From assembly GCF_048403405.1 (NCBI RefSeq), contig NZ_CP183129.1: a stretch of 64,000 nucleotides of DNA; one strand, written 5' to 3'. The notes under the pieces are model-generated. The model was not told the DNA's origin. It ran no database searches and saw nothing but the letters and a program-made list of their open reading frames with translations. Position numbers and translations under genes: made by a program. Shown here piece after piece: positions 60,156 through 62,820 of the stretch (position 1 is its first letter; every line of letters begins with the position of its first letter). The DNA comes from Escherichia coli (GTDB lineage: Bacteria; Pseudomonadota; Gammaproteobacteria; Enterobacterales; Enterobacteriaceae).

Positions 60156-60688
60156 TGTTAGGTATTTTAGACGTTACTAGATTAAAAAGCATTAGTTCAG
60201 GAGTGAATTGACATTCTCATTTTTCATGGCACAGGGTAGATCTGGCGTGGTTGTCCGCTTTGTGCCAACAGCGGACGTTACTAACGAAACTGTGAGTTAA
60301 AAACGGGAGCTGGTCACCTCCATCCCGCGAAATGGAATTCAAAAATGCCCTCATGTACGGTACTTCTAGTCTGATGTGAGCATTTTCGTGGATTTTTTCG
60401 AGCCACTCCAACGAATGATTACATTCAGTTTCGGGCACTAAAACGTCATAAATCCGCAAGTTGAGGAGTAGCGATCAGCCAATTGGTTAAAAAACAGCTT
60501 TAATTCCCTTTTTCAAGCAGGCTCCTTGTCGCACGTCTGGTGCATCCAATTCATTTCAGTTACCCTGATGCCATACTGGCACGGACTAGCTCTCTTAATT
60601 GGCGCTGGTTTGTTAACCTTGTCCGCTGTCGGGTCTTTGTAAGTTGTAATTCCTAAACTAGCATAATTTTATTATAAGGCCTCTTACT

Positions 60689-61714
60689 ATGCACATTTTA
60701 TCTGTTTCAAAAAAGGAAGTTGGAAGAGCTGGGGATAGATTAGTTTCTCAGTTTGGTACAGGTGAAAAATATAAAGAGGAAGATGTACAAATTCTTCATG
60801 AGTGGAGGATGTTGCATTTATATCCTTTAAGTAAAATACAATTTTATATGGAAAGAGAGGCTATTTCCTTAAACAAAAATGCGTTACTATCCTCTAGAAT
60901 TAAGAGGATGCCTTCCATTGTTACTAAGCTTTCTAGATTTCCTGATATGAAGTTAAATAAGATGCAGGATCTTGGTGGGTGCCGGGCTATTTTAAATAAT
61001 CTGGATCAAGTGTATGATTTAGTTAATAAAATAAAATCATCTAAATTCTCACATGAACTAGTTAGAATGGATGATTACATGATAGACGTGAAAGATTCTG
61101 GTTATAGAAGCTTTCATATGGTCTATTCATTCCAAAATAAAAAATTTCCATCTTTAAATGGGTTGCGCATTGAAATGCAAATAAGAACAGCTATTCAACA
61201 TAGCTGGGCTACAGCAGTTGAAATGGTTGGTTTGTTTCGAAAGGAATCATTGAAATCTGGTTTTGGTGATGCAAGATGGCTTAGGTTTTTTGAATTGGTA
61301 TCAGAGCTTTTTTATAAACTTGAGTATGAAAAAGAACCATCTGGGAGTTATATAAAAATATCAGAAGAATTAAGTTATTTATCCGTCGAGTTGAATGTTT
61401 TCGATATATTAGCTGCTTACAATGCCGTAGTTAGCCATATTGAGGGTAGCAAAAAATATGATAAAGGACTTTGCATAATTGTTGTTGATACCATAAAGCG
61501 GAATATAAATATAAAGAGCTTCGAAAATCACAATCATGCGAAGGCGGCAGAAGCTTATGTCGAGTCTGAAAAATACTGCGCGGAAAATAAAGGCTGTGAA
61601 GTGGCTATGGTTTCTGTTAGTTCAATTAGTGAATTAAAAAATGCATATCCTGCTTACTTTTTAGATACGAAAACTTTTTTAAATTATCTCAGTAGGTATG
61701 TTTTTATAAAATAA
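60689..61714 (+). CDS. RelA/SpoT-domain nucleotide pyrophosphokinase (toxSAS-like; candidate fused CapRel-type toxin-antitoxin defence protein)
   Basis: 341-aa protein with the four synthetase motifs in order: RIKRMPSIVTK, DLGGCRAIL, YRSFHMVY, EMQIRTAIQHSWATAVE. No HD hydrolase, TGS or ACT domains; about 130 C-terminal residues unassigned. The gene is markedly AT-rich compared with its flanks. Confidence 0.8.
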   Translation: MHILSVSKKEVGRAGDRLVSQFGTGEKYKEEDVQILHEWRMLHLYPLSKIQFYMEREAISLNKNALLSSRIKRMPSIVTKLSRFPDMKLNKMQDLGGCRAILNNLDQVYDLVNKIKSSKFSHELVRMDDYMIDVKDSGYRSFHMVYSFQNKKFPSLNGLRIEMQIRTAIQHSWATAVEMVGLFRKESLKSGFGDARWLRFFELVSELFYKLEYEKEPSGSYIKISEELSYLSVELNVFDILAAYNAVVSHIEGSKKYDKGLCIIVVDTIKRNINIKSFENHNHAKAAEAYVESEKYCAENKGCEVAMVSVSSISELKNAYPAYFLDTKTFLNYLSRYVFIK

Positions 61715-62448
61715 AAAATGTTATCTGGAGTGGTCTGAATTCTACTAACTTAGTTTTTTCAGACCGCTTCTGACCACAATGGCCTGTGAGGTTCTGCTGC
61801 TAGTCAACATAAAATAACAAAGCCGGCAGGTGGTGGTTGTTGTAAAGTTATTCAATGACATTCATGGAGGCTTAAGCGAATTATTTGTCCCTGGTCGGTA
61901 TGGTGGCAACAGCTTGTTGCGAGAATTTGGCTAATTTGGACTGACTTCCGCTCCTTGCTCAAAGCGGACTAGAAGGTTAGCTTGTGTCGGACTTTGCGTA
62001 TTAAAAGAAGTGCTGGTGGTGACTAGTGGTTGAGCCCCATTTCCACAGAAAAAATCAGAGAAACTATACCCAATAGTTGTATTGAATCACTGACGAGACA
62101 GCCTCATATTCATCAGGACTGGTGTACGTCCAATACAGGAGGTTGTGGTGCTGGTTCTCAAATGTGCGCTGGCTATTACGGCTGTAATGGCGATTTATTG
62201 TCTTGCTATTGTTCTTATGGATCGCCTTTCTGACTGATTTCATATTGGCGAGGTAAAGGTAGTTAAGTAGAATGGCTGCGGGTGCTTGAGGCTATCTGCC
62301 TCGGGCATGAACACCAAAGGCAGATAGAGAAAAGCCCCAGTTAACATTACGCGTCCTGCAAGACGCTTAACATTAATCTGAGGCCAATTTCATGCTAGAC
62401 ACATGTAGGTTAGCCTCTTACGTGCCGGAAGGCAAGGAGAAGCAGGCT

Positions 62449-62604
62449 ATGAAGCAGCAAAAGGCGATGTTAATCGCCCTGATCGTCATCTGTTTAACCG
62501 TCATAGTGACGGCACTGGTAACGAGGAAAGACCTCTGCGAGGTACGAATCCGAACCGGCCAGACGGAGGTCGCTGTCTTCACAGCTTACGAACCTGAGGA
62601 GTAA
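62449..62604 (+). CDS. hokD: Hok/Gef-family membrane toxin
   Basis: 51-aa protein MKQQKAMLIALIVICLTVIVTALVTRKDLCEVRIRTGQTEVAVFTAYEPEE, matching my memory of HokD; AAGGAGA RBS; upstream fold-back elements typical of hok mRNAs. No relB/relE ORFs are present upstream. Confidence 0.9.
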   Translation: MKQQKAMLIALIVICLTVIVTALVTRKDLCEVRIRTGQTEVAVFTAYEPEE

Positions 62605-62820
62605 GAGACCCGGCGAGGGAGAAATCCCTCGCCACCTCTGATGTGGCAGGCATCCTCAACGCACCCGCACTTAACCCGCTTCGGCGGGTTTTTGTTTTTA
62701 TTTTCAACGCGTTTGAAGTTCTGGACGGTGCCGGAATAGAATCAAAAATACTTAAGTAGCGCGCAGGGATAAGAGGGATGGTCCCTTAAAGGGGAGAGCT
62801 AATTATCCGGAAGAATTCTG

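Follow-up and report, generated by a model that had tools for sequence, protein, structure and literature searches.

What is encoded in the stretch of DNA that precedes the type I toxin gene hokD in a lambdoid prophage of Escherichia coli? The window, i.e., the whole 64,000-nt stretch that was analysed, contains at this point an ORF that a preliminary description had singled out for a Cys/Gly-rich C-terminus reminiscent of small cysteine-rich secreted peptides, rating it at the same time as probably spurious. The two elements concerned are the following.

62030..62233, plus strand: flagged ORF (ORF list), TTG start, 67 aa, MSPISTEKIRETIPNSCIESLTRQPHIHQDWCTSNTGGCGAGSQMCAGYYGCNGDLLSCYCSYGSPF.
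62449..62604, plus strand: coding sequence of the type I toxin HokD (RefSeq annotation of an identical genome, E. coli strain 104; ORF list).

The flagged ORF lies upstream of hokD, at about 215 nt from its coding sequence, and the composition of its C-terminal end, GGCGAGSQMCAGYYGCNGDLLSCYCSYGSPF, had been read correctly, with 5 Cys and 8 Gly among the last 31 residues. Both the existence of this ORF and its spuriousness stood up to the analysis, whereas a real gene that overlaps it, in another reading frame, had been missed.

62148..62237, plus strand: small gene, GTG start, 29 codons and a TGA stop, encoding MLVLKCALAITAVMAIYCLAIVLMDRLSD.
62137..62142, plus strand: Shine-Dalgarno (SD) sequence AGGAGG, 5 nt 5' of the conserved GTG (read directly).

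The model favoured here as a whole, in which this 29-codon gene would be an autonomous prophage accessory, expressed from its own weak promoter and encoding a single-pass membrane peptide, is considered very probable.

The comparison of homologous loci establishes 62148..62237 as a conserved, selected and, judging from its signals, translatable protein-coding gene. Thus, CAGGAG(G), a spacer of 5-6 nt, the GTG and the codons CTG GTT CTC AAA are common to all ten aligned homologs, and the SD sequence is kept in all lineages, as CAGGAGG, TGGGAGG, CAGGGGG or CAGGAGA. The start codon, GTG in prophages, becomes ATG on the Shigella virulence plasmid pINV, with the same AGGAGG before it. The small ORF was found intact in 10/10 and 16/16 BLAST-derived homologs. 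A first scan of viral sequences used a pattern placed inside the gene and was therefore biased for codons 12-29, so the tests were redone on BLAST-derived loci and on a flank-anchored scan, in which the pattern covers only the SD region and the hok -35, without the gene interior. None of the 127 flank-anchored copies (23 unique) carries a premature stop or a frameshift, and 124 have an identical ORF length; the other three share a common 11-bp deletion at the stop codon, by which the C-terminus is extended to give 35 aa.

The pattern of substitutions points in the same direction. Among 11 unique BLAST/tblastn-derived sequences, the summed pairwise pN/pS is 0.40 in the frame of the small ORF and 1.11 in that of the flagged ORF, while the third frame carries stops. 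When pINV is compared with L014 (a locus without functional hok), the values are 0.19 in the small-ORF frame (Fisher p<0.001) and 5.08 in the flagged frame; for the window against pINV they are 0.31 (Fisher p=0.004) and 4.62, respectively. In sets not selected by frame, the synonymous fraction reaches 0.43 against 0.26 expected in the small-ORF frame (P=0.017-0.025), and 0.19-0.23 against 0.21 expected by chance in the flagged one; the former excess is only moderately significant (P about 0.02), since the gene is 87 nt long. The small-ORF frame shows 25 types of amino acid replacement, all of them conservative (V/A, A/T/V/S, M/L/V/I, V/I, L/F, D/E, R/H). Divergent members of the family differ in length by whole codons, each with its own SD sequence and its own start, and the breakpoints of homology in HannyBb, BL21 and PS3T spare the SD sequence and the small ORF and remove most of the flagged one. 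Thus, the general features of protein-coding sequences, namely a start codon with a ribosome-binding site, a maintained frame, and an excess of synonymous and conservative changes, are found at 62148..62237 and absent at 62030..62233.

The product would be a single-pass inner-membrane peptide, with a helix of about 19 residues and a short polar tail. With a GRAVY of 1.74, the peptide reaches 2.58 in its best 19-aa Kyte-Doolittle window (residues 6-24), far over the customary cut-off of 1.6. Lys5 precedes the helix, which is followed by a polar tail of the type D/E-R/H-L-S-D (DRLSD in the window copy), the peptide ending 5 residues past the helix. Little or no variation is seen at L8, A9, I10, A12, V13, I16, Y17, C18, L19 and L23, and small or beta-branched residues alternate at positions 6, 7, 11, 14, 15 and 20-22. 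A packing face cannot be claimed for the helix, because the helical periodicity of the conservation is not significant (P=0.18). The peptide falls among hydrophobic membrane peptides of less than 60 aa, an assignment from sequence that refers to the physical class only. A reading of 'LKC' as a lipoprotein motif was discarded, given that Lys is disallowed at -1 and that Cys6 varies to Gly or Tyr.

The signals that could govern the expression of the small gene, and those of its neighbour hok, are arranged as follows.

62082..62110, plus strand: candidate sigma-70 promoter of the small gene (TTGAAT at 62082-62087, 17-nt spacer, CATATT at 62105-62110).
62245..62273, plus strand: hok promoter TTGGCG-17-TAGAAT (promoter scan), beginning 7 nt past the small-gene stop.
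62280..62454, plus strand: hok mRNA leader / sok target (Rfam RF01794, 117 bits, E 4e-27, above the gathering score).
62673..62690, plus strand: intrinsic terminator after hok (terminator scan), the first terminator 3' of the small gene.

The candidate promoter of the small gene matches 8/12 consensus positions, which places it below the threshold of the consensus scan; a relaxed scan recovered it in 77% of unique segments, against 85% for the hok promoter. CATATT or TATATT is retained in 134/136 copies, a TTGxxx hexamer lies exactly 17 bp 5' of this -10-like element in 115 of the 136, and at least five upstream lineages, with unrelated spacers, converge on TTGAAT/TTGAAG/TTGAGT/TTGCTG-17-CATATT. 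TTGAAT-17-CATATT is thus the phylogenetic footprint of a candidate promoter. These elements make it probable that a weak sigma-70 promoter of its own drives the small gene, with read-through of the early-right operon adding to its transcription in lytic growth. The terminator scan returned no terminator between the small gene and hok in hok-linked copies, and the small-gene transcripts probably run on into hok. A terminator-like hairpin inside the ORF (62172-62191) was not retained as a candidate, as direct reading found it not conserved in L014. In BL21 (locus L011), the annotated DUF977 coding sequence (1204-1563) runs into the small ORF (1524-1613), and homology to the module begins only at TATACGTC; since the promoter-like region is missing there, expression of the small gene in this strain would need read-through.

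With respect to hok itself, the 5' end of its mRNA, GGGTGCTTGAGG, is located at 62280. An in-frame upstream ATG (62392-62604, plus strand) gives a Hok ORF of 70 aa extended at its N-terminus; the equivalent in HannyBb is named 'MokW-like host killing protein', and RefSeq has only the 51-aa HokD. At the 3' end of the hok mRNA and its terminator (62613-62694, plus strand), a sub-threshold Rfam match to isrK was obtained (25.7 bits, the gathering score being 50), which is probably just the fold-back/terminator structure of hok.

The window belongs to a Qin-like lambdoid prophage, with the following annotated gene order: cI/cro-like, YdaT, a replication gene, DUF977, the cargo gene given below, hokD, rem, DUF968 and the antiterminator Q.

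60689..61714, plus strand: variable cargo gene, RelA/SpoT-domain protein (RefSeq; PADLOC PDC-S33, E 5e-119).

Judging from these matches, this candidate defence protein may correspond to a defence gene of the small alarmone or nucleotide pyrophosphokinase type. Each prophage (L004-L011, L014-L016, L141, L142, L144) carries a cargo of its own in the slot that separates DUF977 from the small ORF/hok (~60500-61945), including AbiH, SIR2, an AAA ATPase, a SAM methyltransferase, QueH, DUF4145, ORF6N, DUF551 and HigBA, with relBE in K-12. The slot behaves like a hotspot for defence and TA genes in lambdoid prophages of the Qin/mEp460 type; its right-hand landmark is the small ORF, usually placed just 5' of the hok/sok promoter. 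The small gene is accompanied by no functional hok in about 17 viral copies, in L014/L015 and on pINV; in plasmid hok/sok loci, the match begins at the hok promoter and leaves out the small ORF. Taking into account that each of the two elements is found without the other, the small gene can be regarded as autonomous. In one divergent lineage (L142, 2994-3040), a perfect 20-bp palindrome, GATATGGGAATTCCCATATC, is placed between the small-ORF stop and the hok promoter.

The core of the small gene was detected in 1965/5426 complete E. coli genomes (~36%). A megablast search of these 5,426 genomes found that the region ~61945-62400 of the window recurs at 86-99% identity in many prophages, where it is almost always unannotated. 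Four sequenced phages carry the gene, which is annotated in none of their four records, and tblastn located it on 143 plasmids, of which 124 are from Shigella (flexneri, sonnei, dysenteriae and boydii). A few of the 19 E. coli plasmid records look prophage-type or like misfiled chromosomal sequence, and not like pINV. In pWR501 (L012, NC_002698.1, 2880-3200), the small ORF, which starts with ATG and has an intact promoter-like region, lies ~380 bp upstream of icsP and is followed by a diverged, truncated 5' remnant of hok/sok. This suggests that the pINV fragment is derived from a prophage and that a copy was captured by the virulence plasmid of Shigella/EIEC. In a search of 100,044 species, represented by one genome each, the only matches beyond Escherichia/Shigella were two short MAG contigs; E. 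albertii also matches. K-12 MG1655 does not contain the small gene, since relBE abuts hokD in that strain, and this absence from K-12 is the reason why the gene has never been studied; a literature search for the gene, its sequence, its accession or the icsP/ospZ intergenic region found nothing on it.

At the protein level, an exhaustive HMMER search against 1.84 billion representatives retrieved 17 proteins, all of the same family. Its divergent members (MLAALKGFVAILAVVAIYCLVVVLMDRLSD, MLIIKGVLAIVIVVAIYCLVVTLWERLSD and two forms of 31 aa and 34 aa, the latter having its N-terminus replaced by an acidic one) are located, again, between variable cargo (ORF6N, DUF551, HigBA) and a HOK_GEF gene. 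No match to NCBIfam, Pfam or PHROGs was obtained for the flagged ORF, the small ORF or a minus-strand ORF of 59 aa, nor did the small ORF have any relative in PADLOC or in a PDB sequence search. The small gene is unannotated in almost every RefSeq genome checked, and one genome annotates it, as WP_000960667.1; the 29-aa form is a MULTISPECIES RefSeq 'hypothetical protein', and in one source the pINV form goes under the name 'membrane protein'. Small hydrophobic peptides of prophages and plasmids are a kind already known, of which this is an uncharacterised member without family assignment. It provides a cheap and well-defined candidate for small-protein or toxin screens and, situated between the swap-in slot and hok/sok, a convenient landmark for the defence hotspot.

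As regards function, its size, hydropathy and context point to a small membrane-acting accessory peptide. It is tentatively proposed, by analogy and with a likelihood somewhat short of even, that this peptide is a non-lethal small membrane protein, which would insert in the inner membrane like other bacterial small membrane proteins, would bind a membrane protein of the host or the phage through specific helix-helix contact, and would thereby have a lysogenic-conversion or exclusion-type function. Such a modulator is favoured over a freely expressed pore-forming toxin because the SD sequence is strong and unmasked, an antitoxin was not found, and the ORF is intact on pINV without hok. Among small single-TM regulatory or accessory proteins are KdpF (29 aa), CydX, AcrZ, MgtS and PmrR. 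The small peptide resembles them in length and architecture, in its ordinary SD sequence and start, in its constitutive-type candidate promoter and in its conserved mid-helix residues; however, it has no sequence similarity to them, and its gene is mobile (prophage/plasmid) instead of being part of a host operon, with no partner protein encoded beside it. The gene resembles phage morons and small superinfection-exclusion membrane proteins in being an accessory of a prophage operon that bears a promoter-like signal of its own, has a predicted membrane product and lies among defence and TA genes expressed in the lysogen; its hok-linked copies, however, are not provided with a separate terminator, and the candidate promoter has the 8/12 matches given above. 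The predicted peptide is far smaller than the exclusion proteins that have been characterised.

The small gene stays next to hok even in the divergent members, and this persistent adjacency could reflect a toxin-like or hok-linked role instead of a benign one. Among such possibilities, the 29-aa peptide might be the membrane-depolarising toxin of an unrecognised type I TA system (or an orphan type I toxin), in tandem with hok/sok and silenced by a small RNA, whether antisense or divergently encoded, or by folding of its mRNA; this is judged rather improbable, although it accounts for several features. Its 29 aa, single TM helix and charged polar C-terminal tail fit the search criteria for type I toxins of Fozo et al. 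2010 (PMC2887945), most copies, divergent ones included, adjoin hok/sok, and the slot abounds in defence and TA genes, such as relBE in K-12 and HigBA in L144. Like the enterobacterial type I toxins Hok/Gef, Ldr, TisB, Ibs, ShoB, DinQ and ZorO, the peptide has less than 60 aa, one hydrophobic helix and a polar, charged C-terminus, and its gene is likewise found on prophages and plasmids, missed by standard pipelines and, as regards its position, adjoining hok/sok. However, it shows no detectable sequence relationship to these or any other known toxin family. Homology to Hok was specifically rejected: no match to Hok_Gef (Pfam PF01848) was obtained at E<=10, and hhalign of the small-peptide family alignment against HokD gave a probability of 0.7% over 2 aligned columns. 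Neither does the peptide correspond to the description of that family, whose members of ~50 aa have a TM helix and a periplasmic domain with a conserved Cys.

RNAalifold pairs the SD sequence, as CAGGAGG (62136-62142), with CCUUUCUG at the 3' end of the ORF (62226-62233) through 7 pairs, which are kept through one-sided changes, without compensatory change and with weak significance. By our own estimate, a 7-nt match of this kind would be expected by chance ~20% of the time, and the fold is not unusually stable, the single-sequence z-score being -0.51; no convincing SD-sequestering fold was found, and the SD sequence appears strong and unmasked. On the minus strand, 69% of unique variants have a promoter-like GTGATT-16-TATAGT (62063-62090, 8/12 matches) back-to-back with the small-gene -35. 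Transcription from this site would proceed leftward across 61945-62056, a region that is conserved within one lineage only and has a 14-nt deletion in mEp460/MINF9A. Complementarity to the mRNA of the putative toxin amounts to only 8-9 nt, in a segment that mEp460 lacks. A second promoter-like sequence, TTAACT-18-TAAAAT (62238-62273, minus strand), is placed just 3' of the small ORF in ~36% of unique variants and, if active in some lineages, would produce an RNA antisense to the entire small ORF; the -10 of the window copy is TGAAAT, without the critical A at position 2. The minus-strand scan of unique variants found no antisense or divergent promoter conserved across lineages, and no Rfam sRNA match was obtained at the locus besides hok/sok itself. 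Moreover, the ORF remains intact on pINV and in hok-less prophages without a recognisable antitoxin.

Beyond the non-lethal modulator that is preferred here, it is conceivable, though rather doubtful, that the peptide founds a family of mobile small membrane proteins restricted to Escherichia/Shigella and with a dedicated role, selected on pINV upstream of icsP. If this were true, it might act beside Hok, in abortive infection or in the timing of lysis, as a new membrane toxin that has no antitoxin or is controlled by RNA or, alternatively, as a Hok-modulating or exclusion peptide.

A different explanation is that the conserved block is non-coding, as a regulatory region or leader of hok/sok or as a recombination flank of the hotspot, the ORF being incidental or a uORF that tunes hok. 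This has a very low likelihood, despite the position of the block at the right border of the variable slot, the distance of 7 nt between the small-ORF stop and the hok -35, with no terminator between them, and the conservation of the 16 nt after the stop in hok-linked and hok-less copies alike. The substitutions are aware of the frame, with their synonymous excess and conservative replacements, indels occur by whole codons, and the SD sequence and start codon are maintained by different sequences. In addition, the small ORF persists where hok is gone or decayed, and canonical plasmid hok/sok loci work without it. Since substitutions are frame-aware and hok-less copies exist, a purely non-coding or hok-leader-peptide role of the small ORF is unlikely.

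Returning to the flagged ORF, the comparison of frames identifies 62030..62233 as an out-of-frame shadow of the 29-codon gene, extended 5' through unconstrained sequence, and not a gene. Its 28 C-terminal codons overlap the hydrophobic small ORF one base out of register, so that the codons GCN, GTN, CTN, ATT and TGT of the latter are read as GGN, TGY, TAY and TCN, which explains the richness in Cys and Gly. The shifted frame stays open because a stop can arise in it only where the next codon of the real frame is for Lys, Asn, Ser, Arg, Asp or Glu, residues that are rare in a TM segment. With 49 ORFs of at least 20 aa overlapping the same 3.5-kb stretch, an ORF of 67 codons is here no more than chance would give.

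The ORF is refuted on the terms of the preliminary description itself, which had suggested a check of the reading frame in homologous loci: its start varies, it has no RBS, and pN/pS is at least 1. The TTG at -118 is common to only 23 of ~135 related copies, in which the first start codon of the frame occupies more than nine different positions, and the length from that codon varies between 0 and 114 codons, with only 11 left on pINV and in L141. Its rating as probably spurious is thus justified by the unfixed start and length, the lack of a good SD sequence 5' of the TTG, confirmed by direct reading, and a frame without purifying selection. The likeness to Cys-rich secreted peptides or microcins is not supported: relatives have R, Y, S or F in place of the Cys residues, the ORF has a GRAVY of -0.34 and a hydrophilic N-terminus, no hydrophobic or double-glycine leader was found in its 67 aa, no export or immunity genes lie near it (the neighbours being the RelA/SpoT gene, hokD and rem), and no match was obtained in Pfam, NCBIfam or PHROG. 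With respect to class II microcins, the sole resemblance lies in the Cys/Gly composition of the shifted-frame translation, since leader, processing motif in context, export/immunity genes, profile match and selection are all lacking. Hence a small secreted Cys-rich, microcin- or bacteriocin-like peptide starting at this TTG is an almost negligible possibility, even if the ORF exists, its frame is open through the overlap in most copies and some pipelines call the same sequence a protein, considering its pN/pS of 1.1-5, its replaced Cys residues, its unconserved start and length, the lack of RBS and hydrophobic segment, and an N-terminal part missing or non-homologous in many lineages.

The exact 67-aa sequence is labelled 'hypothetical protein' by some annotation pipelines, which constitutes an annotation trap, with some GenBank records calling the shadow ORF a protein and the real 29-codon gene mostly unannotated. 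The 59-aa ORF of the minus strand (62064..62243) was also discarded, since it carries stops in several homologs, although HannyBb annotates an ORF on that strand. Finally, most of the flagged ORF falls in the following stretch.

61945..62081, no strand assigned: upstream stretch present in one module lineage only (alignment).

In the alignment of lineages, this stretch shows elsewhere a 14-nt deletion, a 1-nt indel or complete replacement. Among the ten aligned homologs, HannyBb, BL21 and PS3T each lose the upstream similarity at a point of their own, and most of the others have a 1-nt indel with respect to the window; the N-terminal two thirds of the flagged ORF are consequently unconserved, being missing or non-homologous in HannyBb, BL21, PS3T, pINV, L014 and others. 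At the junction of this stretch with the cargo, a hairpin TCCGCT..AGCGGA is located at 61947-61968.
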